From Longimicrobiales bacterium (GTDB lineage: Bacteria > Gemmatimonadota > Gemmatimonadetes > Longimicrobiales > Gaopeijiaceae), in contig CBDBCF010000001.1 in NCBI GenBank assembly GCA_965202985.1, positions 2,336,001 through 2,400,000 on the forward strand: DNA of 64,000 nt. The letters are read 5' to 3'. Shown here in pieces: positions 20,857 to 58,204 of this stretch. The notes beneath the pieces were generated by a model. The model saw only the letters and a list, made by a program, of their open reading frames with translations. It did not search any database and was not told the DNA's origin. The stretch's first letter is position 1, and each line of letters starts with the position of its first letter. A program made the translations under genes and the position numbers.

Positions 20857-23087
20857 GAGGGCGCTACAAGCTGGCGATTTCGGGCGACTTCTTGCCTGCC
20901 TTTGCGAAGTTGCCGAAAGCACAGCAACAACGGGTCCACGGACTTATCCAAAAGCTCCGGGAGAACCCCACGTCGCCGGGACTGAACTACGAACGCATAC
21001 GCAATGCGCAGAGCCCGAAGATGCGCTCCGTGCGGATCGACCAAGCCTATCGCGCGATCGTTTACGACACCGGGCAGGGTGGACTTCACCTTCTCCTCTG
21101 GGTTGCCAAGCACGACGACGCCTACGCCTGGGCCATGCGCAAGGAGTGCGCCGTCAACCCCGAGACCGGCACTGTGCAGGTGTTTGCGTCCCGGCCCGAC
21201 GACTCCGGCCAGGGCCCGGCCGCAACACCCAGCACGGCGGCGGCCCCATCGGCCCCATCGGCCCCATCGGACCCGTCCGCCTTCGACCAGCTCAAGGACC
21301 GCCAGCTTGTGCGCCTGGGCGTTCCGCAGGCAATGCTCCCGGAAGTCCGAACGGTTCACGACGACGCAGACCTCGAAGCGATGAAGGAACGCTTGCCCAA
21401 AGACGCCTACGAGTCCCTCTTCTACTTCCTGGCCGGCGATTCCTACGACAAGCTGATCCTCGAACGCGAAGCTCCCAGCGAACCGGTCGACACCAGCGAC
21501 TTCGAGGCGGCCCTGGGCCGCAGCGAATCACGCGCTCGGTTCGTCGTGGCGGACGACGATGCCGCCCTCCAGCAAGTGCTCAACGCGCCTCTGGAGCAAT
21601 GGCGGGTCTTCCTGCATCCGTCGCAACGCAGGCTGGTGGAGCGACGGTGGAACGGTCCCGTTCGCGTGCTGGGCGGCGCAGGCACGGGCAAGACCGTCGT
21701 GGCTATGCACCGGGCGCGCTGGTTGGCTCGGCGGATGGCGGACCCGGACCGCGACAGCGACGCCAGCGGAAACCGAGCGGACGGCGCACGCAAGCGCATC
21801 CTCTTCGTCACCTTTGCCCGCAACTTGGCCGCCGACATCGAGAACAACCTGCGTTCGATCTGCTCGCCCGAGGAGATGAAGCGGATCGAGGTGACCAACC
21901 TGGACCGATGGGTGGTCGCGTTCCTGCGCCGCCAAGGGTACGAGTTCCAAATCACCTACGACAAGGACCGGGACCAGCACGCACGGGCCGCGTGGGAGCG
22001 CGCCATGGCTCTTCGGGACCTCGCCTTGGACCACACCGACGCCTTCTACGCCGAGGAATGGCAGCACGTCGTCCAGGCCGCCGGCATCGGGACCGAGGAA
22101 GAGTACTTGCGCGTCTTCCGGGCGGGCCGGGGCACAAGGCTCGGCCGCAGCGCCAGGGCCAAGGTCTGGCCCGTCTTCGCAGAGTACCGGGCGCAGCTGA
22201 CGGAGCACGGGATCAAGGAAGTGGACGACGCCTACCGCGACGCAGCGGCGCTTCTCCGACGCAAACGGAACGCGCCGAGCGCGGACTACGCCGCCGTGAT
22301 CGTCGACGAAGCGCAGGACCTGGGTGCGCCTGCGTTCAAGCTGATCCGCAGCATCGTGCCGGAGGGCAAGGACGACCTGTTCGTCGTCGGGGACGGCCAC
22401 CAGCGCATCTACGGGCGGAGCAATGTCGTGTTGGGACGTTGCGGGATCAACATCCGAGGACGATCGCACAAGTTGCGGCTGGGCTACCGCACCACCGAGG
22501 AGACGCGCGCTTGGGCTGTCGACCTACTGGAAGACCGCGAGATCGACGACCTGGACGGCGGCCGGGACGACAACCGCGACTTCAAGTCTCTCACCCACGG
22601 CCCCGAGCCCAGCCTGCACCACTTCGACAACCGGAGCGCTCAGGCGAACTGGATCGCCCAGTACCTGGACAAGATGTCGCAGCGCGACGAACCGCTGCGC
22701 GGAGCCTGCATCGTCACGAGGACGCGGAACGAGCGCGACGCATTGGCCGACGGACTCGGCGACCGGGGCGTGAACGTCCACGTCTTGGAGCGCGAAGACC
22801 CGGACCCCGAACACGACGACTGCGTCCGCTTGGCGACGATGCACCGCGTGAAGGGACTGGAGTTCGACCGCGTGCTGATCGCCAGCGTCAACCGTCGCAT
22901 GGTGCCCCTCTCCAGAGCGCTCCGCAAAACGGGCGACGCTGCCGCCCGCGAGGTTGCGGAAACCGGCGAGCGCGCCCTGGTCTACGTGGCCGCCACCCGC
23001 GCCAAAAAGGAGCTGCTGGTGCTCAGCTACGGGCGCCGAAGCGAGTTCCTGGGACAGGACAACTACGCCAGCGACCTGTTCGGCTAG
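20853..23087 (+). CDS. UvrD-like SF1 helicase with an N-terminal RelE-like domain
   Basis: RelE-like N-terminus (DFLPAFAKLP...GLNYERI...SVRIDQAYRAIV), WRVFLHPSQR, GGAGTGKT, IVDEAQD, VGDGHQRIY, TMHRVKGLEF and YVAATRA. Confidence 0.9.
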   Translation: MRGRYKLAISGDFLPAFAKLPKAQQQRVHGLIQKLRENPTSPGLNYERIRNAQSPKMRSVRIDQAYRAIVYDTGQGGLHLLLWVAKHDDAYAWAMRKECAVNPETGTVQVFASRPDDSGQGPAATPSTAAAPSAPSAPSDPSAFDQLKDRQLVRLGVPQAMLPEVRTVHDDADLEAMKERLPKDAYESLFYFLAGDSYDKLILEREAPSEPVDTSDFEAALGRSESRARFVVADDDAALQQVLNAPLEQWRVFLHPSQRRLVERRWNGPVRVLGGAGTGKTVVAMHRARWLARRMADPDRDSDASGNRADGARKRILFVTFARNLAADIENNLRSICSPEEMKRIEVTNLDRWVVAFLRRQGYEFQITYDKDRDQHARAAWERAMALRDLALDHTDAFYAEEWQHVVQAAGIGTEEEYLRVFRAGRGTRLGRSARAKVWPVFAEYRAQLTEHGIKEVDDAYRDAAALLRRKRNAPSADYAAVIVDEAQDLGAPAFKLIRSIVPEGKDDLFVVGDGHQRIYGRSNVVLGRCGINIRGRSHKLRLGYRTTEETRAWAVDLLEDREIDDLDGGRDDNRDFKSLTHGPEPSLHHFDNRSAQANWIAQYLDKMSQRDEPLRGACIVTRTRNERDALADGLGDRGVNVHVLEREDPDPEHDDCVRLATMHRVKGLEFDRVLIASVNRRMVPLSRALRKTGDAAAREVAETGERALVYVAATRAKKELLVLSYGRRSEFLGQDNYASDLFG

Positions 23088-25479: not shown

Positions 25480-27087
25480 TCACATGCCCCACACGACGAC
25501 ATCGGTTCCGTTCTCGGACGTTCGCTCCCACCGAAAGACCTTCTCGTCCCAGCTGCGGCCTTCCCGGCGGTCGAAGACGATCAGGTGTCCAGCCTCCGCG
25601 CCGCACTTGTCCATGTAGCCCGCCGTCTGCTCCACGCCCTCCGCCACCGTTCGTTCCACGCCCTTGTGCAACACCTTGCACTCCGTCACGTACTTGCGCG
25701 GGACCTTGCCGGGCTGCGGCTGCGGGTCCGGGTCGCCGCTCTGCGGCCATTCGACGAGCAGGTCCGTGCGACCCCGGCCCAGTCCGTACTCCCGCTCGAT
25801 CCGCCCGCCGCTGTTCACGATCCGCTGCAAGAACGCCTGCAACAGCAGCTGCGGACCGGCTTCCTTGTACTGGAAGCGCTCCACCCAGTGCTCCGAGTGC
25901 TCGCGGAAGAAGCTTTGGAACGCCGACAGCAGTTTGTCCATCGCCAGACCCCCGTCGGCTTCCACGTACCAAGTCGGGTCCTGCGGAAGCTCGTCCTGCG
26001 CCACCCACGTCAGTTCCCGGGGCACGACCTCGGCGTAGATCGGATTGGCGATGCGAAGCGGCGCGTCCCAGGCCACCAATCCTAGGTCGCGGACGTACTC
26101 GATGTCCCGAGCCGACGAACGGGTACGGTCGGCCCCGGTCAGCAGCGGCTCCACCACCCGGCGCACGCGCTCCTCGCGCAACTTGTCCGCCAGCTGGTCC
26201 AGATGCGTTTCCCGGCGCGCGATCAGCGCCTCTTGGGCTGCCGCAATGTCGGATTTGGACACGGGTCGGGTTCGGTCTGCCGCCGCCCTACCCTCGATGC
26301 AAGCCTCGTAGGCCAGCGCGTTCACCAGCCACGGCTGGCCCACGCTTCGGCGCCACACTGCTTCCATAGCCTCTTCCGCGAACGGCTGGCCGGTCTCGTC
26401 GGTATGCTGGGCCAGCAAGGCGCGCACTTCGGCCTTGCAGAAGTCGTTTAGTCGGAGAGACCTGGCCTTGACGTTGAACGCGCTGCCGCCCGCGACGACG
26501 GCGTTGGCGGAGGCCGAGTGGATGCGGTAGTCGCGCACGTCGCGGACGCCGCAGAGGATCACGCTCTGGGGAAAGTCGGCGGGACGCAGGTCGTAGCCCG
26601 CGCGCAGCTGCCGCAACACCGACAGCAGCGCGTCGCCCACAAGGGAGTCGATCTCGTCGATCAGAAACACGAGCGGCTTCGGGTGCGACCGGCACCAGGT
26701 CGTCAGCGCTTCGGTCAGGGCGCTGGTGGGACCGTGCTTCGCAAGGATGCCGGGCCAGAGATCGTTCAGGCTGTCGTCGCCCAAAGTCAGGCGCGCCCTC
26801 CGCGCGATCTCGCTCAGCACGGTGCGCATCGCCTGCTCCACGTCTTCGCGGGCCGCTTGCGCACCCTCGACGTTGACGTAGAGGCAGCGGTGGCGCCCTT
26901 CGGCGTTCAGCAGGTCCCGCAACGCCAAGAGGGCCGATGTCTTGCCCGTCTGGCGCGGCGCGCAAAGCACGAAGTAGCGCTTTTCTAGGATCATGCGACG
27001 CACTTGGCCCAGGTCGATGCGATCGAGGGGCGGGATGTGATAGTGGTCCGCAGGCGCCACCGGGCCGGTCGTGTTGAAGAATCGCAT
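25480..27087 (-). CDS. AAA-family ATPase with a C-terminal PD-(D/E)XK-like domain
   Basis: MRFFNTTGP, APRQTGKTS, LIDEIDSL, GQPWLVNAL and C-terminal IEREYGLGRGRTDL...ECK. Confidence 0.85.
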   Translation of the reverse strand: MRFFNTTGPVAPADHYHIPPLDRIDLGQVRRMILEKRYFVLCAPRQTGKTSALLALRDLLNAEGRHRCLYVNVEGAQAAREDVEQAMRTVLSEIARRARLTLGDDSLNDLWPGILAKHGPTSALTEALTTWCRSHPKPLVFLIDEIDSLVGDALLSVLRQLRAGYDLRPADFPQSVILCGVRDVRDYRIHSASANAVVAGGSAFNVKARSLRLNDFCKAEVRALLAQHTDETGQPFAEEAMEAVWRRSVGQPWLVNALAYEACIEGRAAADRTRPVSKSDIAAAQEALIARRETHLDQLADKLREERVRRVVEPLLTGADRTRSSARDIEYVRDLGLVAWDAPLRIANPIYAEVVPRELTWVAQDELPQDPTWYVEADGGLAMDKLLSAFQSFFREHSEHWVERFQYKEAGPQLLLQAFLQRIVNSGGRIEREYGLGRGRTDLLVEWPQSGDPDPQPQPGKVPRKYVTECKVLHKGVERTVAEGVEQTAGYMDKCGAEAGHLIVFDRREGRSWDEKVFRWERTSENGTDVVVWGM

Positions 27088-27149: not shown

Positions 27150-29840
27150 TCAGTTGCCGAACGCTCGCCGGCGGAGCTGCCGTTCCAGGCGCTGGGCCGC
27201 GTAGCCCGCCAGCGGCTCCAGCAGGTCGGCCGCCAGGGCGGTTGCCGGGAGGTCGCCGCCGCGAGGGTTCAGGTCGTCCAGGAAGAAGGCGGCGGAGAAC
27301 CCCAGAGTGGGACCGGCGCCGGGCGACGTGCCGTTCTGTCCGGGGGTGGCGGACTCCAGCAGGCGCGTCGGCGGGACGCCCAGCACGCCCGCCTCGAGTG
27401 CCGACGCGACGGGACAGGCCGAGAACCAGTCGCGATGCAGGCGAGACGCTCGGCGGCCGGCTTCGGGGGGGACCACGAGCACGCCCAGCACCAGCACGGA
27501 TCCTTCCCGAGTCGCAGTCCGGTCGCGCAGGGGCACGGAGACGGCGGGAGTGCCCGTCTTGGCGAAGACGTACACGTCGTGGTCCTCGGCGCCGGGGACC
27601 GATCGGATCGCCGATTCGAAGCGCCGGACCGCCGGGACGATGCGGGCCGCTGTGCCGCCGGGGCCGGCCACCTGCTCCATGGCGTGGAGCACGCGACGAC
27701 GGGCGCCGGGGTGGAGCACGTCTTCCGGCAACGGTTCGGGCGCCTCGCGGGCGGTGCTGGAGCGGGGGTCCGCCACGATCCGGCCGCGCACGTCCCGGCC
27801 CGTCATCAGGCGCGCTGTGGCCTCGGCGAGCTGGAAGTTGCTCCAGCGCGAGTTCTCGCCGCCCAGCAGCAGGTTCACCCAGTCGCGGCGCAGCTCCTCG
27901 ATCGTGTTCAGCGCCAAGTTCGTGACCTGGGGCGACACGGCGGAGAAGCGAAGCGCCGTGTGCACCGGGTTGGCCGTGTCTCCGGCGGCCCGCAGCGTCT
28001 CGATCGGGCCGCGCCACAGGTCCAGCCGGTAGCGGCCGGCTCGGTAGGCGTCGTCCAGGCCGGCGGAGATGGCGGTCGAGGGCGTGCGGTCGCGGTAGAC
28101 GGCGCCGCCGGTCAGCCGCTCCAGGGGCAGAGCCGGGGCGAAGCGGTCGCCGACCAGGCGCAGGTCGCCGCATGTCCTGCCCGTGAAAGGGAGGTCGTCC
28201 GAGAGCACCAACCGGACCACTTGGTCGCAGAAGCGCACTTCGCGGCCGGGGGGCTCGGGGGCTGGGCTTGCCGAGTCGGCCTCGCCCGGACCGCTCGCAG
28301 GGCCTGCCGTGCCCGCTTCGCTCGCTTGGCTTGCCTCGCCAGTCGCACCTGCCGAGTCGGTCGCCTGCGCCGCGCCCACTGCGTCCGCTAAGCACTCGGC
28401 CAGTCCCCTGCCGCCCGCTCGGCACTCGGCCGCGTCCCCACCGCCGGCCGTGCTGGCCAACAACGCGACGGTGGCCACTTCCACCATGTACCGGTTGCAC
28501 GATGTGCGAAGGAACGCTTCCAGTCCCTCCCATCCGTCGTGTCCCGCGGACCCGTAGGGCACTGGCAGGGCGCACCCGAAGACGTCTTCGACGGGCGCGA
28601 CGGCGTGGGGCGAGATCTCCAGGTCCAGCAGAGCGGGGAAGGCGGTGGCGATCGACGCGGCCCAGAACGGCTTCAGCGCCGAGCCGCCGGGATGGAGGGC
28701 GAAGTTCTGGTTGCGCAGGTACCGGGAACGCAGGCGGCGGGCCAGGTGGCCGTAGTCGTCCAGGGTCGCTTCGCCGGGGCAAGTGGGCATCGCCAGCACG
28801 TCTCCGCCAAAGGCGTCCATCACCAGCGCCGACACGGCCCGAGGCCGACCGGGCAGGCGCTGCCGTTCGCACCAGCGGTCCACGACGGCCTGCGTCGCGG
28901 TCTCCAGGTCGCGGTCCAGGGTCAGCCGCACCTCCATGCGCGAGACGAGGCCGCCGTCTCGGGCCGAGGGCGTGGATTGCAGGCCGCCCTCCATCGCCTG
29001 GGCCAAGTCGCGCACGAAGGGCGTCAAGTGGGGGACCAGATGCCGTCTCTGGGCGCCGTTCCCCGGGGCCACGGCCGACACCAGGCCGGCCCGGTCCGAA
29101 CCGTCCACCAAGTATGTGAAGACCTGGCTCCGGTGCTCGAACTGCACCCAGTCTCCCGACTCCAGACGCGCGATGCGCCCCGGCGGCATGGCGAACCCGT
29201 TGAGCCGCAAGTGCGAAGGCGCGCCCACGTCGCGGCGGTCGGCCAGGACGGGTTCGTCGCCCACGAAGAACGCCTCCGCCAGCACCTCCGGGCTGCGCGG
29301 CGCCTGGAAGCGCAGGAACGCCGTGCGGGCCGAAGCCTCCCCCCGCGACAGGCTTGCCCGCTGGCTGCGTGTGGCGTCCAAGGCCTCCAAGGGGTGAACC
29401 ACGTTCAGGCGCTGATCCCGCCCGCCCCGGAAGGCAGCGCTTTGGCCGGCGCGCGCGAAGCGAACGGGCCCGGTCCAGCGGGGTACTCGGTTGTAGGGCA
29501 GGTCCACGCGGTGGTAGAAGGGGTCCACGCCCAGCAGGCGGCAGCCGTCCACCAGGAAGGGCGACCGGGCGGCGGACGGGTCGGCGTTGAAGCGGCGCAC
29601 GTCGGCGCGGAGGTAGCTGGAGCGGAAGAAGCGCTCGTCGGGGGTGCCGGGGGCCAGGCGGACGACGATGGAGTCACGGGCGCCGCAGCGCAGTTCCAGC
29701 CCGCCGTTGCCGACGATCGCGTTGGCTCGGCTGACGAAGCCTTCCGGCGCCCAGTATCCGGCCGGCTCTTCCTGAAGCGCCGCAACGACGATCAGGGCAG
29801 CCAGGCCAAGGGCGAGCCACCTCGCGGATCGCGTCGTCAT
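27150..29840 (-). CDS. Divergent penicillin-binding transpeptidase with an N-terminal anchor and an FHA-like domain
   Basis: N-terminal TM helix, LRLNG...LESGDWVQF (FHA-like), VRLTLDRDLE, LVMDAFGGDVLAM, SxxK (GSALKPF), SxN (TSCNRY) and KTG (FAKTGT). Confidence 0.8.
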   Translation of the reverse strand: MTTRSARWLALGLAALIVVAALQEEPAGYWAPEGFVSRANAIVGNGGLELRCGARDSIVVRLAPGTPDERFFRSSYLRADVRRFNADPSAARSPFLVDGCRLLGVDPFYHRVDLPYNRVPRWTGPVRFARAGQSAAFRGGRDQRLNVVHPLEALDATRSQRASLSRGEASARTAFLRFQAPRSPEVLAEAFFVGDEPVLADRRDVGAPSHLRLNGFAMPPGRIARLESGDWVQFEHRSQVFTYLVDGSDRAGLVSAVAPGNGAQRRHLVPHLTPFVRDLAQAMEGGLQSTPSARDGGLVSRMEVRLTLDRDLETATQAVVDRWCERQRLPGRPRAVSALVMDAFGGDVLAMPTCPGEATLDDYGHLARRLRSRYLRNQNFALHPGGSALKPFWAASIATAFPALLDLEISPHAVAPVEDVFGCALPVPYGSAGHDGWEGLEAFLRTSCNRYMVEVATVALLASTAGGGDAAECRAGGRGLAECLADAVGAAQATDSAGATGEASQASEAGTAGPASGPGEADSASPAPEPPGREVRFCDQVVRLVLSDDLPFTGRTCGDLRLVGDRFAPALPLERLTGGAVYRDRTPSTAISAGLDDAYRAGRYRLDLWRGPIETLRAAGDTANPVHTALRFSAVSPQVTNLALNTIEELRRDWVNLLLGGENSRWSNFQLAEATARLMTGRDVRGRIVADPRSSTAREAPEPLPEDVLHPGARRRVLHAMEQVAGPGGTAARIVPAVRRFESAIRSVPGAEDHDVYVFAKTGTPAVSVPLRDRTATREGSVLVLGVLVVPPEAGRRASRLHRDWFSACPVASALEAGVLGVPPTRLLESATPGQNGTSPGAGPTLGFSAAFFLDDLNPRGGDLPATALAADLLEPLAGYAAQRLERQLRRRAFGN

Positions 29841-32800
29841 CGGGCGCTCCCAGGAGTCGAGGCGTCCGAGCCCTTGGCCTGCGCCTGCGCCATCGCCGCC
29901 GCCGCCAAGCCCAGCACAGCTAGCGCTTCAAGGGTGTCGCCCAGGGAATCGAGGCCCAGCAGGTAGACGTTCTTGCCCGTGAACAGCGCCCAGCCGTAGT
30001 TGGCGAAGACCATGTAGACGCCGGCCCCCGAGAAGGTGAGGAGGGCCGTGGCCGACACGAAGCGGGCGCTGCCGGACCAGCGGTCGGCGGGCAGCAGCGG
30101 GCGAAGGACCGCCGCGAGAAGGGCCAGGAGTCCCAACGTGCCCGGCGTTCCCCACTGGCTGGCCAGCAACCCCGTGACCACATGCTCTCGGGTGGCGGTC
30201 GTGCGTATCTGGGGCGACACGCGGCCTTCCAGGAAGCCCTGTCCCCACCAGTTGCCGCGCGTGTACGAACGCATCGTCTCGCGCATGACGGCCAGGGCCT
30301 CGCTCCGGCTCTCGCCGATCAGCCGGAGCGCGTCGGGATCGCCTCGCTCCAGAAGCAGGAGCTCGTTCCGGCTCCACTCCTCCAAGCCGGACCTGGGCCC
30401 CTCCATGTCGGGCAGAATCGGGCGAAACAGGTCGGGGAATGCTTGCGGCACGACGAACAAGAACAGCGGGAGCGCACCGGCCAGCGCCAGCTTGCGGTCG
30501 GCGCCTCTGGGCCGCGGCCGACCGGCGGGGGCGTCCTCGACGAGGGCGTTCGCGCCCAGGGCGTCCTCCGCCAGGGCGTTCGCACCCGGGCCGTCCTTCG
30601 CCGGGCTGTCCTCGGCCAGGGCATTCGCGCCCGGGGCGTCCACCGTCGGGCCGTCCTCCGCCGTGGCGTTCTCCAGTCCTTGGGCCCGCGCCCACCACGC
30701 GCCGACCAGCGCAAGCACAAGCAACGGGCCTGGAAGTGTCGTGAAGGCGATTCCGAAGTCGGAGATCGCGGCGCTGGTTCCCACGTAGGCCAGACCCAGA
30801 AAGGCGCACAGGTCGCCAAGCGACTTGACGGCGCGGCGACGGTGCTCGTCGGGTGCTGCCTTGGCGACCCGCCGGTCGTGGGCCGCTGTCAGCAATGCGA
30901 AGGCGAACAGCGAGACCGGCGTGTGCAGCACCGAGAGGCCGACGCGGGTGCCGCCCACGGCGATCTGCTCCCGAAAGCCCGCCACCTCCAGCGCGACTCT
31001 GCCCAGCAGAATCGCAAGTCCCGCCGCCGCTCCCGGCCACTGGGCGGCCCAGCGCCCTACCACCGTCGGGAGCGCCTTGCCGATCCGGCGCAGCCCAGCG
31101 ATACACCGAGCCCAGAGCCGAACCCGGCGGTCGAATGGCGTCAGAGCAAAGGCCGCCGCGCCGCCGACCGCGACCAGGAGGACCATCGACTTGGCGGGAC
31201 TGGCCGGGAAGAGGGCCGAAGCCAAGAAGATCAGCGCCGCCGCCAGCCCTGCCGTGGCGATGTCGCTGCTGTTCTCGGCGGCCCAGTGCCCAAACGCGGC
31301 CGTTTTCGCGATCGACGCCGCGCCGATGTCGTTCTTGCCGGTGCCGCCTGCGGCTGAGACCTCGCCTTCGCGCTTTCGGCCAAGAGCGCACACGAAGAAC
31401 GGCAGCGCCGGGATCAGCCACAGGCCGATCTGATGGCCTTCGTCCACGAAGGGGTAGCGCGCCATGGCGGACGTGGAGAGCAGCAGGCGGACCGCGGCGA
31501 TGCCCAGCGCGGCAAGAGCCACTCCCCTCGCGGCGCCGGTGGTTTCGATCAGCGCGAAGGGGACGGCCGCCAGGAGAAAGAGGGCGGCCAGCAACAGCAT
31601 GAACGACCACGAGGCCGCCAGCCCGTCGATCCGCAGGAGCAGCCCCCTCTCGCCGTCGCTCAAGGTGAAGGGGCGTCCGGTGTCCCAGCGGGCTTGGCCC
31701 GACGGCGCCAGCAGCTCGAACCATCCGGCGGACGGGGCGCTGGGGAAGCGCAAGACCGCCTGCCCGGCCGCCACGAAGACGTTGGAGGGCGACACGAAGG
31801 TCAGACCTGTCGGCCCCTCCGGCACGGCGCCGACGGCCAGCCGGATCGGATGAAGCCTGGCGTCGCCCGGCCGCCCCGAAGCGAACGTCGAGACGGCGCG
31901 GCTCGCCGGAGGCAGATCGATCGTTGCGATCGAACGAACTTCGGACCGAACGCCCTGCACGGTGACCCACTCCTCGTCCACGCGGACGCCGAAGCTGCCG
32001 AGCGGCCTGGCCCCGTAGCGCTCTCCTGCGGCAAGCCCCGGCTCGGGGAAGTCGCGGTACGGCAATCCCGCCACGGTCACCCTTGGCCTGCGCCCGCGCT
32101 CCGTCCATGCGGAAGCGAGTTCGACCGGCGCCTTGGCCGCGCCGTCCGCCGAGGTCACGTGGACGGCCTCGTCCAGAACCGCCAGGCGCGCACCGCCCTC
32201 GTCGTCGTAGTAGAGGAAGGAGCGGAGCCCGGCCGGCGTCGGCCCGTTCAATCCCGCCGCGGCCGCCAGTTCGGCCAGCGGATAGGTGCGCTGGTAGACG
32301 CCGGGTCGGCGCGGGAAGAGGCCCAGCACGCCCGAGCCGTCGGGGTAGGGCACGACGACCGTTCTCGCGTCGGCGCTTCCGTCGTCGGCGCCCCCGTCGT
32401 CGGCGCTCGACCCGTCCGCATCCCCGCCGCCGGTCATGTGCACCAGCTCGTCGCGGGTTCCGCCGATCCCCGCCTTCTGGGCCAGGGAGACCTTCGACCG
32501 CGCGAAGGCGAACACTTCGTCGGGGCCGCCGTCGGGGGAGCCCACGCGAATCCGATCTCCCGGCGCCACGGCAACCGAGCCCAGCACGACATGGTCGGCG
32601 CCCCTCCACCGGCGAGGCGTTCGCACCACAGCTACGGCGGACGCCGCCGTCGGATCCGTCGCCCGCACCACGATGCCGCCCGCCGAGTCGCGCATCAGGA
32701 CCGCAACCGGATCGTTCCCGGCGCCCGGCAGGTAGTAGTCCGCCCGGTCGCGGTCGCCCGACACCTCGGCGACGACGCCTCCGCTGCGCGGCTGGAAGCG

Positions 32801-32977
32801 CTGGCCCAGCAGCTTGACTTGGTACGACGCCAGCCTGTCCCCATGAAACCAGATCGACCCGCCCGCCACGACGCCGATCGCCAGGACCCAGAGACAGGCG
32901 CGGCGACCCGGCGACGACCGGCGTGCCATCCACCCCGAACCGACGAGTGCGATCAGGCCCAGAAGCAGGACGCTCAT
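29837..32977 (-). CDS. Divergent SEDS (FtsW/RodA/SpoVE-like) polytopic membrane protein with a large soluble beta-rich/FHA-like domain
   Basis: Two N-terminal TMs, a soluble region of several hundred aa (VAPGDRIRVG), then many TMs with SDFG, RGNWWGQGF, REHV...QWG and GKNVYLLGLDS in SEDS-motif order. Directly upstream of a PBP. Confidence 0.65.
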   Translation of the reverse strand: MSVLLLGLIALVGSGWMARRSSPGRRACLWVLAIGVVAGGSIWFHGDRLASYQVKLLGQRFQPRSGGVVAEVSGDRDRADYYLPGAGNDPVAVLMRDSAGGIVVRATDPTAASAVAVVRTPRRWRGADHVVLGSVAVAPGDRIRVGSPDGGPDEVFAFARSKVSLAQKAGIGGTRDELVHMTGGGDADGSSADDGGADDGSADARTVVVPYPDGSGVLGLFPRRPGVYQRTYPLAELAAAAGLNGPTPAGLRSFLYYDDEGGARLAVLDEAVHVTSADGAAKAPVELASAWTERGRRPRVTVAGLPYRDFPEPGLAAGERYGARPLGSFGVRVDEEWVTVQGVRSEVRSIATIDLPPASRAVSTFASGRPGDARLHPIRLAVGAVPEGPTGLTFVSPSNVFVAAGQAVLRFPSAPSAGWFELLAPSGQARWDTGRPFTLSDGERGLLLRIDGLAASWSFMLLLAALFLLAAVPFALIETTGAARGVALAALGIAAVRLLLSTSAMARYPFVDEGHQIGLWLIPALPFFVCALGRKREGEVSAAGGTGKNDIGAASIAKTAAFGHWAAENSSDIATAGLAAALIFLASALFPASPAKSMVLLVAVGGAAAFALTPFDRRVRLWARCIAGLRRIGKALPTVVGRWAAQWPGAAAGLAILLGRVALEVAGFREQIAVGGTRVGLSVLHTPVSLFAFALLTAAHDRRVAKAAPDEHRRRAVKSLGDLCAFLGLAYVGTSAAISDFGIAFTTLPGPLLVLALVGAWWARAQGLENATAEDGPTVDAPGANALAEDSPAKDGPGANALAEDALGANALVEDAPAGRPRPRGADRKLALAGALPLFLFVVPQAFPDLFRPILPDMEGPRSGLEEWSRNELLLLERGDPDALRLIGESRSEALAVMRETMRSYTRGNWWGQGFLEGRVSPQIRTTATREHVVTGLLASQWGTPGTLGLLALLAAVLRPLLPADRWSGSARFVSATALLTFSGAGVYMVFANYGWALFTGKNVYLLGLDSLGDTLEALAVLGLAAAAMAQAQAKGSDASTPGSAR
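30532..30670 (-). repeat. In-frame degenerate tandem repeat (ANALAEDxPG-type) in a loop of the SEDS-like protein
   Basis: ATAEDGPTVDAPGANALAEDSPAKDGPGANALAEDALGANALVEDAPAG. Confidence 0.7.
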
Positions 32978-34995
32978 GGACTTGGGACCTCGTCTGCGTC
33001 CGCCCGGCGGCTGCTTCGGCGCTCGGCGGCCTCGTCGGCGTAGAAGTCGGTTCGCGTGAGCAGGAAGAACCGCCACCAGTTCACGAAGACCAGCACGGCC
33101 AGCGACATCCCGGCGGCGGCGCAGATCAGCAACGCCGCCACGGCCGCTACGGGCTGGTTCCTGGCGTGGTGGCGAAGTCGCCGACTCTGGGCTCGGACGC
33201 CGCTCTGGGACCGCACCAGCGGGGCCATGTCTTCGGCGCGGTACACGTCGGAGGGTCGAAGGCCCGCGTGGGCGACGGCGGACTCGGCCGTCCGCACGTA
33301 GTCCGCCGCGTCGCGAGCGCGGATGCTGGAGAAGGCGGCCCCGCGTCGGAGCTGTTCGACCAGCTGCTCGGCGATGTCGTGGAAGACGGCCTCCGTCCAC
33401 TCCGATGCGTAGGTGCACGCGGCGGTCGGATCGATCCCGGCGTTCAGGTCGGCGGGAACCGAGCCCCCGCAGAAGGCGCGGGCGTGATTTCGGGCCTCGT
33501 CCAGGATCGCGTCGACCTGCACGTCGGGGCCGCCCGAGAGTCCGGCGCTTCTTCCGCCCCCGGCCTCCAGCTGGCGCCGGCGCCGCTCGTAGCGCGCGAC
33601 CAGTCCGCCGTGAAGGAACGCTCCCGACCTCTCCAGCCAGCGCTCCCGAACCGCCTTCGCCACGGGTTCGGCGGCTCGCTCGGGACACCGGGCCTCCAGG
33701 CGCGCGAAGGTGTGAACGGCCACGGCCGCCCAGGCGCTGTCGGCGGTCGCCCGTCCATCTTGTCGCAGTCCGGCGGCGACTCCCGCCAGCATCTCGCACT
33801 GCTCTTCCTCGTCCAGCCCTAGTGCGCGCGTCCACTCCGGCTCGTCGAGCACGCGCCACGCCAGGACGGCCCTGCTCGCGGCCAGCCGAGGGTCGGGACG
33901 CAACCGGTTGTAGTGGTAGACCCGTTGCAGGTTGGACGCCGCCCAAAGGACATGCTCGGGGACCCGGCCCCTTTGCCGTCGGGGCTGGGCGGCGGCCTGC
34001 TGGGCGTACCGGAGAAGGGGCGCCAGCGGGTCGCCCGGGTCCATGTCGAAGCGGTGGCGAGCGACCTCTCCGGCCAGACGCTCGGGATCGCGGAAGTCGG
34101 GCGTCGCCATGTAGGCCGACACGAGCCCGGCGTAGGCGTCCAGCGAGGTGAGGCCGGGTTGCGCGGTACCGGAGCACGAGAGAGCGCCGGGCGGCAGGTC
34201 GGTTCGACGGTGGTGCCCCCCTGGGCGGGCGCCGCGAGAGCCGTCCAGCGCGTAGCTGACCGCGTTGAGGGCGCGGCGGAAGTGGGCGACGGCGTCGACC
34301 GGCCGACCTCGACCGTGAGCCGCCATGCCCGCTAGGTAGCGAGCGTGGAACGCCAGGATCACCAGCGTGCGCGGGGCGCCCCCGGCACGAGCCGCGCGAG
34401 CGGCATCGGACGCGTGCACCGTGGGCAAAGGCCCGCCCTGGGGCTGCACCAGCGGGATCGATTCCAATGCGCGGGCCGCGCCGGCCCAGTCCCCGCCGGC
34501 GCTCGCGGCTCGGGCCAAGGCGTAGAGCGCGATCGGTCGGGCGGCGGCCGACAGCCCCGGAATCCGGTTCTCGAGCGCCTCGACCGCGTTCGCCAACCCG
34601 GTGCGACCGTCGGCGCTCGCGGCCTGCTCGGCTTGGCGGATCGCCCTGTCCAGGTCCCGTGCCTCGTCCGCCCCGGTGCCGGGCCATCCGGCCGCGCACA
34701 GGAACGGAGGCAGCGGAGGAGCCAGCAGATCGTCGGCGCGACGGGCCATTCCGCCGCCCTCCAGCACCGCGAATCGCCACGACGCGTCCAGGGCGCGGTC
34801 CAGCCGAGGGGGCTGGTCCAGGAACCGGTACGCGCGGACCAGCGTGGTCTCCGGCGACGACGACCCGAGCAGCGACCGGCCCACCCAGGCGCACGCGACC
34901 AGCACCGCGGCGCACGCCCCCGCAAGCACCAGGCGCGCCCTACTGCCGGGCGCGGTCCGGCGGGCGCCGGCGCCGAAGAGCGTCGTCCAGCCCAC
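32974..34995 (-). CDS. Membrane protein with N- and C-terminal TM helices and a TPR-like helical domain
   Basis: RLVLAGACAAVLVACAWVG anchor, TPR-like ALYALARAASAGGDWAGAARALE and ARYLAGMAAHGRGRPVDAVAHFRRAL, C-terminal TM. Start is GTG 34995 or CTG 35001. Confidence 0.7.
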   Translation of the reverse strand: MGWTTLFGAGARRTAPGSRARLVLAGACAAVLVACAWVGRSLLGSSSPETTLVRAYRFLDQPPRLDRALDASWRFAVLEGGGMARRADDLLAPPLPPFLCAAGWPGTGADEARDLDRAIRQAEQAASADGRTGLANAVEALENRIPGLSAAARPIALYALARAASAGGDWAGAARALESIPLVQPQGGPLPTVHASDAARAARAGGAPRTLVILAFHARYLAGMAAHGRGRPVDAVAHFRRALNAVSYALDGSRGARPGGHHRRTDLPPGALSCSGTAQPGLTSLDAYAGLVSAYMATPDFRDPERLAGEVARHRFDMDPGDPLAPLLRYAQQAAAQPRRQRGRVPEHVLWAASNLQRVYHYNRLRPDPRLAASRAVLAWRVLDEPEWTRALGLDEEEQCEMLAGVAAGLRQDGRATADSAWAAVAVHTFARLEARCPERAAEPVAKAVRERWLERSGAFLHGGLVARYERRRRQLEAGGGRSAGLSGGPDVQVDAILDEARNHARAFCGGSVPADLNAGIDPTAACTYASEWTEAVFHDIAEQLVEQLRRGAAFSSIRARDAADYVRTAESAVAHAGLRPSDVYRAEDMAPLVRSQSGVRAQSRRLRHHARNQPVAAVAALLICAAAGMSLAVLVFVNWWRFFLLTRTDFYADEAAERRSSRRADADEVPSP

Positions 34996-34997
34996 TT

Positions 34998-36413
34998 TCA
35001 GCCCCTGTCCCCGTCGGGTCGCGGGGCGGCGCGGCCCAGGGCGTTCCATGCGTCGGGTCGGAGACGGCGGTCCAGCCGGATCGCCGCGGCCGAAGACAGC
35101 CCCGGCACCCTCCACGGATGGCGGGCCAAGAAGTCCACCACGCCTTCGCCCCCGATCAAGGAGTCCGTGCCCGGTTCCGCGTCGGCGGCAGCGTCCAGCG
35201 GGTCCGGGTCGGGGCTTCGGTCCTCCAGCGCTTGGCAGAACGACCACTTGAAGTACCGCACTTCGCGCTCCAGAAACTTCAGGAAGTCGGGAAAGTGGGC
35301 GGCGGCGGTCAGCAGGGGCTCCGACTCGCCCGGTCGCAGTCCGGCGGGCGTCCGATGTCCCAGCCGGGGCAGGTCGGGCGTGTGCAGGCGGTCCCGGGTG
35401 CGTCCGACGTACAGGTCGGCCTTGGAAAGCACGACCGCGACCGGCCGGTCGTACTTGGTGGGCGCCCGCTTGAAGGCGTCGTCCACCTGATTCCGCGTGG
35501 GAGGCCGGTTCCCTTTCAAGTCCAGCCGTCCCTTGCGCCGGAGCCGTTCGGCGAACCGCGCCACGACCGCGTACTTGAGCAGCATCTTGTGAGCGTTCAC
35601 CATGCGCTCGGCGGCCGCCTCCATCTCCCTGCGCTCGCCGGCGGGGGGCACGCGGCGGCGGGGGTCGTCTCCCGGGTTCCAGCCCGACCAGACCACGGGC
35701 AGCGCCATGAGGAACGCGATTCCGTCCAGCCGCTGGAGGACGGGCCAGAGGAAGGCCCCCATCAGCTCCGGCAGCTCCCGCTCGTAGTCCCCCAGCACCT
35801 GATAGTCCTCGCCGGCCATGTCCACCAGGACGTGATGGTCGCGCCTGCCGGGCAGGTAGTAGATGTTGACGTCCCCCCGCTCGGTCTTGTTGTAGTGCAG
35901 GTCGGCGCCCGGCCTGTCCGCGGCCCGCTCCCGGAGGCGGTCGGCGAGCGTCGTCTTGCCGTGGCGCGGCAGCCCCGCGATGCCGAAGAGCTTGCCCCGC
36001 CGCCGCCGACGGTGCTCCGCGAGCGCCTCGACGGCGGTGCCTGCAGCCGACCTGTCGGCGGACTGCACCCTCTTGCTGTGCAGGCCCGGCGAGGGTCGCG
36101 GGGGCGGGATCGCCGAGTCGTCCGGTTCTTGGCGTGTGCGCTCCTCGGGCGGGTCGTTGAGCGCGTCGCTGGGTGGCGGAGCGGAACGGCTCGGGGCTTC
36201 GGGCGTCGAGTCCGCCGGGGGGCGGGCGTCGTCCGATGGCGAATCCGCCGATGCAGGGGTGTCGTCCGGGGCCGAGGCGTCGTCCGCGGCCGAGGCGTCG
36301 TCCGGGGCCGAAGCGTCGTCCGCGGCCGAACCGCGGCCCGCCCTTTCCCGCATGACCTCCTTCCGCAGCCGCTTCAGGGTCTGCGCGACTTGTCTGCTGC
36401 GCTTCTCGCTCAT
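34998..36413 (-). CDS. TRAFAC-class GTPase (double-GTPase/DO-GTPase-like) with a low-complexity N-terminal linker
   Basis: G1 GLPRHGKTT, G2 KTERG, G3 LVDMAGE and G4 VLSKADL. ATG 36413 overlaps the upstream stop. Confidence 0.8.
   Translation of the reverse strand: MSEKRSRQVAQTLKRLRKEVMRERAGRGSAADDASAPDDASAADDASAPDDTPASADSPSDDARPPADSTPEAPSRSAPPPSDALNDPPEERTRQEPDDSAIPPPRPSPGLHSKRVQSADRSAAGTAVEALAEHRRRRRGKLFGIAGLPRHGKTTLADRLRERAADRPGADLHYNKTERGDVNIYYLPGRRDHHVLVDMAGEDYQVLGDYERELPELMGAFLWPVLQRLDGIAFLMALPVVWSGWNPGDDPRRRVPPAGERREMEAAAERMVNAHKMLLKYAVVARFAERLRRKGRLDLKGNRPPTRNQVDDAFKRAPTKYDRPVAVVLSKADLYVGRTRDRLHTPDLPRLGHRTPAGLRPGESEPLLTAAAHFPDFLKFLEREVRYFKWSFCQALEDRSPDPDPLDAAADAEPGTDSLIGGEGVVDFLARHPWRVPGLSSAAAIRLDRRLRPDAWNALGRAAPRPDGDRG
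36255..36328 (-). repeat. In-frame 18-nt tandem repeat (SAADDA/SAPDDA) in the GTPase linker
   Basis: About four GCGTCGTCCG(C/G)GGCCGA(A/G) units on the + strand. Confidence 0.75.
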
Positions 36414-38494
36414 TCGGAGGACCTTTCCCTGCTCCCACTCCAACGCCATCTCGTCTTCCGGGCGGGGCGCCGCGCCGACGAGGAACGGCGGGCCGGGGCG
36501 GAACGCCGATGAAGGAGGGCCGACCGGAGCGCCAGGAACACCGAGATCGGCGGTCCCGGCTCGTGTTCCATGAGGCGCCGGGCCAGGGAGGCGGCTCCAG
36601 GGCGGCCCGCCGCCGCCAAGGAGGCCAGGGCCGTCTTGCCCCAGATGCGCTGCTCGACCCACGCCAAGCGCTGGAGAACGCCGGCGTCCAAGGAGCGCGA
36701 CTGATCCGAGCCCAACGCCGCTTCGCCCGGAGCCGTGGTCGCTTCGCTTGCGCCGACCTCGGCCCGGCGCGCCGCCGCAAGCCCGAGCCAGACTCTTGCC
36801 AACAAGGTCTGCCAAGCCGGATGCGCCCTCCCGGGCCAAGCCAGGAAGACGCGAATCAGGTCCCGAGCCAAGCGGGAGCTCATCGGGTCCCGGAGGCCGG
36901 CGGCGTCCACCATCTTTGGCACGTCGGCGACCCGACCAAGCGGCTCGAGGAGCCCGACAACGATGCCGGCCAGCTTCGCGACCGTCTCGTCCCCGTCTTG
37001 CTCCCGCGTCCGCCCGACCGCGGCCCCCAGCTCCCCGGCGTCGACGCCCGCGTGGGCCAGCGCCCGGAGCCCCTCGACCAGGAGCACCAACCCCTCGGCC
37101 CGACGGCGCGTCCCCGTGCCCGCCAAGACGGCCAGCCGCGCCGCCCAGGAGCCGGGAACCTTGCCGCCGAACCCGCGAACCAGTCCGTCGAAGAAGCGCC
37201 GGTTGGTTGTCAGCAAGGGCTCGCGGAGAACGGCGTCGATCCACTCGGGCGGTCGGCCCGGAGGCCGCGCAGCCAAGTCGGCCGCGGCCAGCACGCCGAG
37301 CGCTCGCCACCGCTCCGCGCCCCGGGACTCGAGACGCGCGCGGTCCAGGAGGTCGACGGCCCCAAGCCGCGCCGGCGCCCAATGCACGACGTAGGGCTCG
37401 CTTGCCGCCCGAAAGAGAGAAAGGCCCCGCGCGTCGATCCGAGCGCTTGCCCTGCCGTACTCGGCCGAGTCGCCCAGGACCAGAGCGGCCCACGTCTCCA
37501 AGGGACCGCGTTTCGTGGACGCCGCTCCCGTTCCCCCAGTCCCCGTTCCCGTTCCCCGCCCCGGAACGGCGGCCCCGGGCACCAGGCACGGAGTCGGATG
37601 GCGTCCCCGCAGATCGAGCGTCGAGTAGAAGACGCGGACCCTGTCGACCAACGGCAGGGACAGCCACGCCAACCGCATTACGACGCAGGCCTCCCGGCGC
37701 GTCCCAACCACTTGGACGGCGCCGTCGCGGGAGACCTTCGCAGCCGGGGCGTCGGGAGTCGGGGCGCGGTCCGGAGCGCGGGCCGGGTCCGAGGTCGCGT
37801 CCACCTTCCGATACACGTCCACCAGCGCTTCGCGGACGGCCCGAACTCCACCAGCGGCGACGGCGGCTCGAGCCAGGCGGTCCACCTCGCGCAACCGGGC
37901 GCGCCTGATCCGGTCTCGATTCGGCCTGTACTCGGGCGTGGCCAACGGTTCCAGGCCCGCCGGCGCGGAGCGGCGAAGCTGCGCGAACCAAGCCGCCTCC
38001 GCGGGCGCTCCGGACGCCATCCCCGCCGCCGACAAGTCCAGGTGAAGCCCTTGGGGGAAACCGTCGATCTCGCGAAAGAGGGATTGGTCGAAGAGGAGCG
38101 TGTGGGTCGCGACGCGCGGACGGCGGGCGCGGGCTTCCTCGCGAGCGGGCCGAACGACGCCGGAGAGGCAGAAGCCAAGGCGACCGTCCAGCGGCAGGAA
38201 CGCCTCCGGCAGCCCCAGCGTTCCCATGGCGACAGCGTCCGTCTTCGGGTCGTCCGCCCTCGGGCCGCGGCCGCCCTCCCGAACAAGCACTGGCGGCTCG
38301 GCAGACTCCGCAAGCTCGGCGCCCCACGGCACCCGTTCTTCCAGCCTCCCCGCCCGAACCCGGTCCAGACCCCCGGTCCAGCCACAGGTCTCCCACGCCG
38401 GGTTGTAGGCGGAGGCGTTGGATGCGAACAGATGGCGATCCAGGCGGCGGTTGCGTCCCGCTGGATCGTGCTCGTCCGGTCCTGGCGCGGTCAC
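36410..38494 (-). CDS. Hypothetical protein with a possible GTPase-associated protein 1 (GAP1-N/uDENN-like) N-terminal domain and a helical C-terminus
   Basis: GTG 38494 overlaps the upstream stop. RHLFAS...WETCGWTGG and GFCLS...RRPRVATHTLLF resemble GAP1-N2-type strands. Immediately upstream of the GTPase. Confidence 0.55.
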   Translation of the reverse strand: MTAPGPDEHDPAGRNRRLDRHLFASNASAYNPAWETCGWTGGLDRVRAGRLEERVPWGAELAESAEPPVLVREGGRGPRADDPKTDAVAMGTLGLPEAFLPLDGRLGFCLSGVVRPAREEARARRPRVATHTLLFDQSLFREIDGFPQGLHLDLSAAGMASGAPAEAAWFAQLRRSAPAGLEPLATPEYRPNRDRIRRARLREVDRLARAAVAAGGVRAVREALVDVYRKVDATSDPARAPDRAPTPDAPAAKVSRDGAVQVVGTRREACVVMRLAWLSLPLVDRVRVFYSTLDLRGRHPTPCLVPGAAVPGRGTGTGTGGTGAASTKRGPLETWAALVLGDSAEYGRASARIDARGLSLFRAASEPYVVHWAPARLGAVDLLDRARLESRGAERWRALGVLAAADLAARPPGRPPEWIDAVLREPLLTTNRRFFDGLVRGFGGKVPGSWAARLAVLAGTGTRRRAEGLVLLVEGLRALAHAGVDAGELGAAVGRTREQDGDETVAKLAGIVVGLLEPLGRVADVPKMVDAAGLRDPMSSRLARDLIRVFLAWPGRAHPAWQTLLARVWLGLAAARRAEVGASEATTAPGEAALGSDQSRSLDAGVLQRLAWVEQRIWGKTALASLAAAGRPGAASLARRLMEHEPGPPISVFLALRSALLHRRSAPARRSSSARRPARKTRWRWSGSRERSSE

Positions 38495-39123
38495 GGGACA
38501 TACTCCGGGGGGATTTCGACGCCTGAACTGTCCGGCCCGGTGTCCAAGGCGCTGTCCGTTTCGAGGGCTTGCGAACTGTCGGCGGCGAGGCCCGGAGAGT
38601 CGGGCAGGCCCAGCGAATCGGGCAGGCTCAGCGAGTCGGGCAGGACGGCCCGCACGGTGTCCACGAGCGGCGCGACGGAGTCTCCGAAGACGCTTGGAGC
38701 GCCGGCCCCGCCGCCGGCCGCCCCGGCGGGCCACGGTCCCCACTGTCTTCCCGCCCACCACCCGGCGCCCACGAGCGCGACGGCGGTCAGGGCACCCACG
38801 ACGGCGGCAGCCCATGTCGGCCACGGCCTTGACCCGGCCTTGCCTCGGGTAGCGGCGTCGCCCTTGGCGCCGGCGTTGCCCTTGGCGCCCGCGTCGCCTT
38901 TGGATGCCGAAACCGGACCGTCGATTCCGAGGGGGGCCGCGCTCGCCATCTCCTCCCGCACCACCCGCCGCACGATCTCCTCCCAGTCGGCGGGCGCGGG
39001 CGCCGCGCTTCGAACCGCTTCCGCGACGGCCTCTCCGGCGTCTTCGCGGATCGCCTTCAGAGTCTGGCGGTAGAGCGCCGTCATCTCCTGTTCGCGCTCG
39101 TAGGTCTCCTGTTCGCGCTTCAT
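38491..39123 (-). CDS. Single-pass membrane hypothetical protein
   Basis: ATGA-coupled. Charged helical N-terminus, TM WAAAVVGALTAVALVGAGWW, and short KGDAGA and LPDSLx repeats. Confidence 0.7.
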   Translation of the reverse strand: MKREQETYEREQEMTALYRQTLKAIREDAGEAVAEAVRSAAPAPADWEEIVRRVVREEMASAAPLGIDGPVSASKGDAGAKGNAGAKGDAATRGKAGSRPWPTWAAAVVGALTAVALVGAGWWAGRQWGPWPAGAAGGGAGAPSVFGDSVAPLVDTVRAVLPDSLSLPDSLGLPDSPGLAADSSQALETDSALDTGPDSSGVEIPPEYVP

Positions 39124-39548
39124 GGTTCCAGTCGCTCCGGCGAGAGGACGAAGGAGAACGACGATCCGCGGGGCAGGACGGCATCCAAGTCCGCAACCCC
39201 GAGCTGTTCCAGAAGCGCGGCCCGAGCGGACTGGTTGTTCTCCAGGTGATAAAGGCGCAGCACGTCGCGGGCGGTCATGTCCCAGGGCGCCGCCACGGTG
39301 GCCGTGTCCCGGCCCGCCATGAACGTCGCGGCCAACTCGGAGGCGTCGTTGAACGAGACGACCGAGGCCAAGGGGCTTGTCTCCGTGCTCACCATCGCCG
39401 CTTCCCGCAGCGCCGGTCCGAACGCCCGCCCAAGCAGATAGGCGACGCCGCACGCCGCAACCGCCGCCGCGCACCGGCCCGCCCGTACGAGCCGGGTCTT
39501 CAACGAGGGCCAAGCGTCAGTGCGCCGGGCGTCCTTCGTTTCCCTCAT
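39120..39548 (-). CDS. Small membrane-anchored protein with a possible degenerate LysM-like domain
   Basis: GGGGAGG RBS, TM CAAAVAACGVAYLLG and a C-terminal beta-alpha-alpha-beta pattern ATVAAPWDMTARDVLRLY...DAVLPRGSSFSF. Confidence 0.6.
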   Translation of the reverse strand: MRETKDARRTDAWPSLKTRLVRAGRCAAAVAACGVAYLLGRAFGPALREAAMVSTETSPLASVVSFNDASELAATFMAGRDTATVAAPWDMTARDVLRLYHLENNQSARAALLEQLGVADLDAVLPRGSSFSFVLSPERLEP

Positions 39549-58176: not shown

Positions 58177-58204
58177 ACGCGCGCCTGCACCAAGGAGTCG
58201 AGCG

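Follow-up and report, generated by a model that had tools for sequence, protein, structure and literature searches.

A conserved, optional gene cassette pairs a predicted DO-GTPase/GAP1 switch with a divergent SEDS and class B PBP pair in Longimicrobiales

Pairs of a SEDS protein and a class B penicillin-binding protein (PBP), such as RodA-PBP2 and FtsW-FtsI, are steered by MreB or FtsZ scaffolds, and SpoVE-SpoVD is a further synthase of this class. SEDS copies beyond FtsW and RodA also occur: in the accessible text on Enterococcus faecalis (PMC12724132), FtsW2 and RodA2 provide extra wall synthesis on demand. In germinating Myxococcus spores, a GTPase and its GTPase-activating protein (MglA/MglB) steer the site of SEDS-PBP synthesis, according to the available part of 10.1101/818641. 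A separate group, the DO-GTPase/GAP1 systems, was predicted computationally as a family of conflict systems (Kaur, Burroughs, Iyer and Aravind 2020, PMC7159879), and three themes have been described for those with GAP1-N2, namely tubulin/vWA, HSP70/GrpE and kinase/PP2C/vWA (PMC7159879). Here, we have analyzed a 64,000-nucleotide stretch of a Longimicrobiales bacterium genome (GCA_965202985.1, contig CBDBCF010000001.1, positions 2,336,001 to 2,400,000; hereafter the window), in which a seven-gene cassette at 27150-39548 combines a GTPase and a GAP1-type protein with a divergent SEDS-PBP pair. The cassette is real and conserved, and it represents an undescribed variant, new in its output, of the predicted DO-GTPase/GAP1 family.

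The cassette consists of seven minus-strand open reading frames, numbered g1 to g7 in the order of transcription from 39548 to 27150. The first gene, g1 (39120-39548, 142 amino acids), encodes a small protein that is anchored at its N-terminus and has, at its C-terminus, a beta-alpha-alpha-beta domain that is possibly LysM-like, and g2 (38491-39123, 210 amino acids) encodes a protein with a charged helical N-terminus and, by hydropathy, a single membrane pass. They are followed by g3 (36410-38494, 694 amino acids), a GAP1-type cytoplasmic protein with a GAP1-N2-like N-terminal domain, GAP1-M and a helical C-terminus, which is the predicted partner of g4 (34998-36413, 471 amino acids), a TRAFAC-class GTPase of the DO-GTPase type with a low-complexity N-terminus. 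Next, g5 (32974-34995, 673 amino acids) has two transmembrane segments and, between them, a large TPR-like helical domain that is probably periplasmic. The last two genes encode the predicted wall enzymes: g6 (29837-32977, 1046 amino acids), a putative divergent SEDS-fold glycosyltransferase with its core at about 555-1040 and E931 as predicted catalytic residue, and g7 (27150-29840, 896 amino acids), a class B-type penicillin-binding transpeptidase with an N-terminal transmembrane segment and an FHA-like insert in the pedestal region.

Rechecking of the reading frames reproduced the places, lengths and 4-nucleotide stop/start overlaps reported by the initial annotation, which a model had made from the DNA letters: ATGA at 39123/39120, 36413/36410, 32977/32974 and 29840/29837, and GTGA at 38494/38491. 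That annotation had offered either a gap or a CTGA overlap near 34998; of the two, the gap stands, since the g4/g5 junction is a 2-nucleotide gap (TGA-AA-GTG, 34998/34995), and the GTG start of g5 is favored over CTG because the alignment with the closest orthologous locus (L007) begins at g5 residue 1 and the junctions of that locus are -4, -4, -4, +1, -4 and -4. The identical seven-gene order was found in loci L001-L004, L006, L007 and L008, and dN/dS against L007 was 0.21-0.55 for each of the seven genes. Thus, the gene order is not due to chance. None of the seven proteins scored above the Pfam or NCBIfam cut-offs. No match to a sigma-70 promoter was found, and terminator-like sites numbered 2 against 5.6 expected. 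In-frame tandem expansions of 15- or 18-nucleotide units are present in linkers of g6 (30495-30687), g4 (36248-36319) and g2 (38583-38644 and 38836-38909), those of g6 coinciding with low-confidence loops of its model. These short expansions are the repeats present; around the cassette there were no terminal repeats and no target-site duplication.

The AlphaFold 2 (AF2) model of g7 (pLDDT 88) adopts a class B PBP fold. Foldseek matched it to PBP3 (E 2e-11), and VIA-align gave a Z score of 27.2 with a root-mean-square deviation (rmsd) of 3.2 over 373 aligned residues, covering model residues 118-882 with the pedestal included; hydropathy places the N-terminal membrane segment at 5-23. The SxxK, SxN and KTG motifs noticed in the initial annotation lie where it had placed them (S387/K390, S447/N449 and K761-T762-G763), as do the GTPase motifs described below. 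S387, K390, S447 and N449 were found in 41/41 homologs, K761 in 39/41 and T762 and G763 each in 40/41; a KTG search pattern that was too narrow for Thermoanaerobaculia sequences played no part in these counts. By its modeled fold and intact motifs, g7 is a class B PBP with predicted transpeptidase activity. A beta-lactamase or a MecR1-type sensor was considered and rejected, as those folds have no pedestal and scored Z 18-21 versus 27. Named relatives of g7 are hypothetical proteins of Gemmatimonadota/Longimicrobiales.

The AF2 model of g6 (pLDDT 82) was aligned by VIA-align with RodA (8tj3_B, Z 19.4, rmsd 4.8, 323 residues aligned), FtsW (Z 18.1) and Thermus RodA (Z 16.8), the next entry reaching 9.1. 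ESM Atlas assigned FTSW_RODA_SPOVE at 0.93, HHalign against canonical SEDS proteins gave 95-96%, and one relative of g6 matched PF01098 weakly (E 1e-4). The PDB profile search with g6 returned no SEDS protein and three chance matches, and among this search, Foldseek and VIA-align only the last resolved the SEDS fold. The annotated SEDS-like protein is thus borne out at the level of the predicted ten-TM fold, and the model identifies g6 as a SEDS protein that is not a canonical FtsW or RodA. With regard to the active site, HHalign sets the aspartate of the canonical HTD motif over E931, a placement that depends on the profile alignment; the canonical reference comprised 21 proteins from 41 loci, the remaining 20 having failed the motif filter. 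In the available text of PMC8765783, D297 is the putative catalytic residue of Escherichia coli FtsW. Across 150 representatives of the g6 family, this column holds D in 69 and E in 74 and is gapped in 7, so that an acid is present in 143/143 ungapped rows. Arg or Lys at 870 or 874, in the stretch that matches the donor-site arginines, was likewise found in 143/143 rows. Where canonical motifs are replaced, the family has invariant residues of its own (E670; T1000-G-K-N; S1011 and D1014). Because the remodeled pocket is conserved in this family-specific way, these alignments suggest that g6 is active, and the partner PBP points to lipid II as its putative substrate.

The pair therefore resembles known SEDS-class B PBP synthases (RodA-PBP2, FtsW-FtsI) in both folds, adjacency, PBP motifs, the acid column, a DxG motif and a G-x-G loop. 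In contrast to those synthases, it shows ~13-19% structural identity and is invisible to Pfam; its SEDS gene comes first and is nearly three times the usual length, with additional transmembrane helices and a beta-rich, partly FHA-like domain (48-454) preceding the core; the PBP carries an FHA-like insert; the W138, QPSE and SYGGS positions are replaced; the operon encodes no MreBCD or FtsQLB-type partners; and the cassette is optional. FtsW2/RodA2 of E. faecalis differ from the cassette in resembling FtsW/RodA and, in the accessible text of PMC12724132, in being switched transcriptionally by a two-component system with no GTPase module.

The GTPase g4 retains motifs G1-G4, including G1 (G147-T154), DxxGE (198-202) and SKAD (330-333). 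Residues G147, G152, K153, D198, G201, E202 and D333 were invariant in 23/23 family members, and K331 was present in 18. A PDB profile search matched EngB/Der/IF2 structures (best E 1e-6), Pfam PF19993 matched 3/23 members (best E 2e-5) with g4 itself below the cut-off, and HHalign gave 97% between the g4 family and the Pfam-recognized DO-GTPase2 paralog of the cassette. In the available text of PMC7159879, the hallmarks of DO-GTPases are the Walker-B (DxxGE) glutamate, in many cases an N-terminal zinc ribbon, and a GAP1 partner. These matches agree with the GTPase call of the initial annotation. An arginine in the g4 P-loop (R150, GLPRHGKT, 35955-35975) is kept in the Gemmatimonadota copies and falls within the interface predicted below; Thermoanaerobaculia copies mostly do without it. 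This residue is reminiscent of the cis-acting arginine of GBP/atlastin GTPases.

For g3, GAP1-M (PF20014) was detected in 2/9 orthologs below the cut-off (best E 8e-4), and HHalign gave 95% (E 2e-8) against the Thermoanaerobaculia ortholog family (GAP1-like B), members of which match GAP1-N2 (PF20013) weakly, one of them above the cut-off. The assignment of GAP1 N and M domains thus follows a chain of weak matches. ESM Atlas was blank for the N-terminal domain (best 0.78), the PDB profile search with the GAP1 alignment yielded helical noise only, and no Pfam match to GAP1-C, which divergence could mask, was observed in the cassette proteins. A model of the complex of g4 (122-460) with g3 (12-305) scored 0.82, whereas the best of three controls scored 0.00; the score mark was reached by 116/157 solved and 2/215 mismatched pairs, a calibration that holds only roughly here given custom alignments and the inclusion of GTP and Mg. 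Model runs agreed in at least 87% of contacts, with a partner pLDDT of 81. Predicted contacts cover residues 148-150 of the P-loop, residues 173-181 of switch I, and switch II, E202 lying at the center of the interface. In the model, g3 occupies the position on g4 where a GTPase-activating protein or effector would sit, which supports binding and fits the earlier description of g3 as GAP1-N-like.

In an alignment of 16 g1 family members, HHalign to the LysM profile gave 66% (E 6e-5) with all rows and 4% without the three most divergent rows; the best PDB match was a LysM-type endopeptidase (E 0.2), and Pfam LysM matched 0/16 members. Hydropathy places the transmembrane segment of g2 at ~103-121. 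In Thermoanaerobaculia, the g2 position is occupied by a larger GAP1 paralog with a transmembrane segment, to which the g2 family profile matches weakly (E 1e-4), with an HHalign value of 79% over a C-terminal part missing from the g2 of the window. The transmembrane segments of g5 lie at ~20-38 and 619-637 (hydropathy), its Pfam TPR matches are weak (E 0.002-0.05), and g5 is homologous between subtypes (HHalign 95-99%). FHA-like domains, which the initial annotation had expected, are present in g6 and g7, and the phosphopeptide-binding residues are not. The beta-rich domain of g6 resembles PrgH (Z 8.1), aprataxin FHA (7.0) and MxiG (6.7), a range that chance folds also reach. The g7 insert gave an HHalign value of 79% to FHA; PEVLAE is aligned at the FHA SxxH, the GR motif falls beyond the matched region, and the GR, SxxH and NG residues for phosphothreonine binding were not found in the insert. 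Both domains are probably periplasmic: that of g6 would lie outside the membrane, like the g7 insert, when helices are counted back from the cytoplasmic start of the core. Phosphothreonine sensing as in the actinobacterial pknB-pbpA-rodA locus was rejected, as the binding residues are absent and the cassette has no kinase or phosphatase. No cassette protein had a Pfam match to FNIII.

This wall-enzyme family comprises 754 clusters (50% identity, E<=0.001), and a genome scan found 57 loci, 42 with separate SEDS and PBP genes and 15 with one long protein. The GTPase is carried by 25/28 split-type loci that have at least 7 kb of upstream DNA (that of L042 being counted by motif and Pfam). In L040, where no GTPase is in view, the contig ends inside the PBP gene, and its subtype has the GTPase downstream. 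The other 15 loci (L043-L057) encode a protein of ~1750 amino acids whose N-terminal half has many transmembrane segments and a weak SEDS profile match (best E 4e-5); from its sequence, this protein of the Thermoanaerobaculia subtype is likely a SEDS-PBP fusion. A different zinc-ribbon GTPase follows in 14/15 of these loci, with G1 and DxxGE in 14/14. In one example (L053:6218-14200), the fusion-type protein shows SxxK, SDN and KTG, and then come a zinc-ribbon DxxGE GTPase and a 450-amino-acid protein of no known family.

Among split-type loci, the Thermoanaerobaculia order (L061-L067) is g1-like (6/7), zinc-ribbon GTPase, GAP1-like A, GAP1-like B, second GTPase, g5-like, SEDS and PBP, and the first GTPase is above the DO-GTPase2 (PF19993) cut-off in 5/8. 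Another subtype (L069:5765-18703 and L038) has a tandem-duplicated GAP1-like gene pair between two GTPases and a g1-like-SEDS-PBP unit on the opposite strand. The one-GTPase form is also present in three Thermoanaerobaculia-class genomes, and three genomes outside the profile set keep the order GAP1-GTPase-g5-SEDS-PBP. Searches with five query sequences did not find the first (DO-GTPase2-type) GTPase in the genome of the window, so its cassette is of the one-GTPase form. The gene-order comparison called for by the initial annotation therefore shows a conserved order in two phyla and one alphaproteobacterial record.

In Gemmatimonadota, PBP and GTPase occur in the same 5/401 genomes; because cassette members had supplied the GTPase profile, the main message of this match is that the other genomes yielded no free-standing copy. 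In 251 Thermoanaerobaculia-class genomes, SEDS was found in 13, GTPase in 13 and both in 11. The 13 SEDS genomes include G584, which is SEDS-only in the scan, and in the other SEDS-only genome (G450) inspection revealed the GTPase within the cassette. Trees of GTPase, SEDS and PBP were congruent over 26 complete loci (distance r 0.94-0.98, a value that kinship alone raises), and the Gemmatimonadota copies grouped together as a single clade in each tree (midpoint root, no clade test). The alphaproteobacterial L042 clustered with Thermoanaerobaculia loci L123-L125 in the three trees, reflecting either transfer or a binning error. A record labeled Wenzhouxiangella (L011) holds GTPase, g5-like, SEDS-like and PBP genes, the PBP being 39% identical to g7, and also represents transfer or mis-binning.

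The cassette is rare and optional: it is present in 5/401 genomes of the phylum and 2/4 of the genus, and in one congener its site is clean and unoccupied. In that congener (G660, 98% complete, one contig), the flanking genes are ~350 bases apart versus 14.3 kb in the window, and in G658 the cassette occupies the same site as in the window. Gene calling of the window confirmed that no mre, fts or mur gene is nearby. The separate canonical loci that the initial annotation had proposed to look for both exist elsewhere in the genome: contig 1 carries an ordinary dcw cluster that includes ftsI and ftsW, and contig 2 carries mreBCD-pbp2-rodA (names were assigned from gene order and sequence, and Pfam supports those of the SEDS and PBP genes). 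Accordingly, the cassette is an extra, accessory set, and a housekeeping RodA/FtsW role of g6 and g7 was rejected.

Compared with described DO-GTPase/GAP1-N2 systems (PMC7159879), the cassette shares a TRAFAC GTPase with the Walker-B glutamate, GAP1-N2 and GAP1-M domains, transmembrane components and a patchy spread, as well as zinc-ribbon N-termini and two GTPase paralogs in its Thermoanaerobaculia form. It differs in its output, a constant SEDS-class B PBP pair, in having no detected FNIII and in the single GTPase of the window form; two GTPase paralogs occur in 38% of described systems and are not obligatory (PMC7159879). Literature searches, which did not cover subscription journals, found no paper linking DO-GTPase/GAP1 with SEDS or PBP genes and no characterized match, in line with the initial annotation. 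The main text of PMC7159879 contains none of the terms 'FtsW', 'transpeptidase', 'penicillin' and 'LysM', nor do two of its supplementary files, among which the neighborhood table, which could bear on novelty, is apparently not included. FtsW and transpeptidase are absent from the available part of a ParA preprint (10.64898/2026.10.19.760177), and the accessible text of a PSP preprint mentions them in other contexts only.

On the basis of these results, it is very probable that the GTPase and synthase genes form one functional unit of some kind. We slightly favor, at little better than even chances, a DO-GTPase/GAP1 switch that gates a private accessory peptidoglycan synthase in response to attack or damage. 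In this mechanism, g4 and its GAP1 partner g3 would associate in the cytoplasm, as the complex model predicts; two membrane proteins, g2 and g5, would pass on the nucleotide state of this pair; and g6, as a private SEDS polymerase, together with g7, as a class B transpeptidase, would make and cross-link new wall locally from lipid II, apart from the FtsZ and MreB machines, with g1 perhaps acting as a tether. The trigger, envelope attack or damage, is assumed because the switch belongs to a predicted conflict-system family. A more far-reaching version is possible but doubtful: a self-contained third SEDS-class B PBP machine beside divisome and elongasome, gated by an immune-type GTPase and GAP, which walls off or patches the site of attack, uses Glu as catalytic base and would be the first among DO-GTPase/GAP1 systems to have an enzymatic output open to assay. 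Of the GTPase-switched trans-envelope wall machine proposed by the initial annotation, the analysis shows the gene anatomy, predicted folds, conserved catalytic columns, conserved linkage and optional presence; control of the synthase by the GTPase is proposed, and the suggested purposes (defense, repair, contact or host interaction) are hypothetical. None of the three findings that the initial annotation had named as refuting its proposal was obtained: the membrane protein has a predicted SEDS fold, GTPase and SEDS/PBP homologs co-occur elsewhere, and no characterized system matched.

Several observations weigh against such a gated, defensive synthase. Its output is constant, with the g5-SEDS-PBP set placed after the switch in almost every intact locus, and under purifying selection, versus the hypervariable effectors of described GAP1 systems; PADLOC matches none of the cassette proteins; no copy was found in plasmid or phage collections; and only 5/103 flank proteins from 27 stretches match PADLOC at E<=1e-20, all of them generic folds, a raw count without a background rate. 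Concerning the enzyme, Foldseek with g6 gave no SEDS protein at E<=0.001 (FtsW was top at E 0.015); the g6 of the window has Glu where canonical SEDS proteins have Asp in 21/21, though the selection pattern required Asp; and W138 (RW), QPSE and SYGGS, positions partly essential in E. coli FtsW in the accessible texts of PMC8765783 and 10.64898/2026.02.13.705525, are not kept in the g6 family in the HHalign register. Concerning linkage, L016 and L017 hold the PBP with no GTPase in view, and both look decayed; G556, GTPase-only by scan, contains the remains of a broken cassette; and in G429, also GTPase-only by scan, both GTPases, both GAP1 genes and g5 are present, unrelated genes come next, and no family SEDS or PBP was found. 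Beside the decayed cassette of G556, there is a gene encoding 438 amino acids whose first residues look tubulin-like (GGTGQ start), with a neighbor encoding 955 amino acids (L120:2896-7732, by eye), which recalls the tubulin theme of GAP1-N2 systems.

The missing synthase of G429, together with the GTPase genes of L038 and L041 lying on the strand opposite to the synthase genes, would fit two independent modules, a GAP1 system and an orphan SEDS-PBP pair, that share a locus without working together. We consider this very improbable, since all seven genes are translationally coupled and the linkage persists in four differently arranged subtypes with congruent trees. The switch without a synthase in G429 would also suit a signal running inward, in which the SEDS and PBP proteins sense precursors, wall fragments or beta-lactams (or make another lipid-linked polymer) and the GTPase/GAP1 module triggers a cytoplasmic response. 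Replacement of SEDS motifs, Asp-to-Glu change in half of the family, the large additional FHA-like and TPR-like interaction domains and the frequent use of borrowed modules in inactive form by conflict systems of this class (PMC7159879, available text) are consistent with it. A decoy, however, has no need of catalytic centers conserved across phyla (acid 143/143; Ser/Lys 41/41), and no nuclease, protease or other recognizable cytoplasmic effector was found in the cassette, which makes an inward signal unlikely.

Scarcely more probable, and still unlikely, is a developmental role for the same machine, in which GTPase and GAP would mark a site in the manner of Myxococcus MglA/MglB, and the synthase would build a special structure (bud, stalk, junction or resting-cell wall) unrelated to attack. 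Such a role accords with constant gene content, congruent trees, mostly non-defense flanks, the single Gemmatimonadota clade that old inheritance followed by losses predicts, and the precedent of a GTPase-GAP pair positioning Rod complexes (available part of 10.1101/818641). However, a presence in so few genomes of the phylum and half of those of the genus, with a clean empty site, is patchier than expected for a shape-defining system, and the switch comes from the DO-GTPase/GAP1 family rather than the Ras-like MglA family. Patchiness and pedigree favor a response made only when the envelope is attacked or damaged, whereas constancy favors a developmental job.

With regard to the surroundings, an AAA-family ATPase gene (25480-27087, minus strand) lies between g7 and an S9 peptidase gene and is regarded as a separate insertion because it is missing at that site in G658. 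Beyond, PADLOC reported a defense island at 2-23087, ending 4 kb from g7, which comprises type IIG restriction-modification (2-2854), SIR2-HerA (3101-6275), PDC-M23A/B, Hachiman-like (7303-11261), an HEC-01A-like ATPase (11946-13082), a Druantia-E-like helicase of 2231 amino acids (13079-19774) and an ATPase plus UvrD helicase with a weak ParE-like N-terminus (19771-23087). The cassette was not taken as part of this island, as the S9 peptidase gene intervenes and the flanks at other loci are mostly non-defense. On the other side, a low-GC gene with a PDC-M55C/HEC-05-like match is located at 45283-47001 and a type I methyltransferase at the end of the window (62401-63999). Between them, a plus-strand group at 53151-62371 encodes a heme protein, a radical SAM-like protein, a small peptide (at 58205), a propeller, an ABC transporter and an S8 peptidase; from the N-terminal sequences, it looks like a quinohemoprotein amine dehydrogenase/radical-SAM peptide-maturation operon.

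If the proposed coupling is true, a private SEDS-class B PBP pair under a GTPase/GAP switch would be another route of wall-synthesis control. The function of DO-GTPase/GAP1 systems would become directly testable, because standard assays exist for both enzymes of the output (Bocillin, lipid II polymerization and fluorescent D-amino acids), and the remodeled pocket of g6 offers a natural experiment on SEDS catalysis. As the family is invisible to Pfam, genome surveys of wall enzymes miss it. Our data suggest that an optional machine for building or patching the cell wall on demand is likely present in some bacteria.

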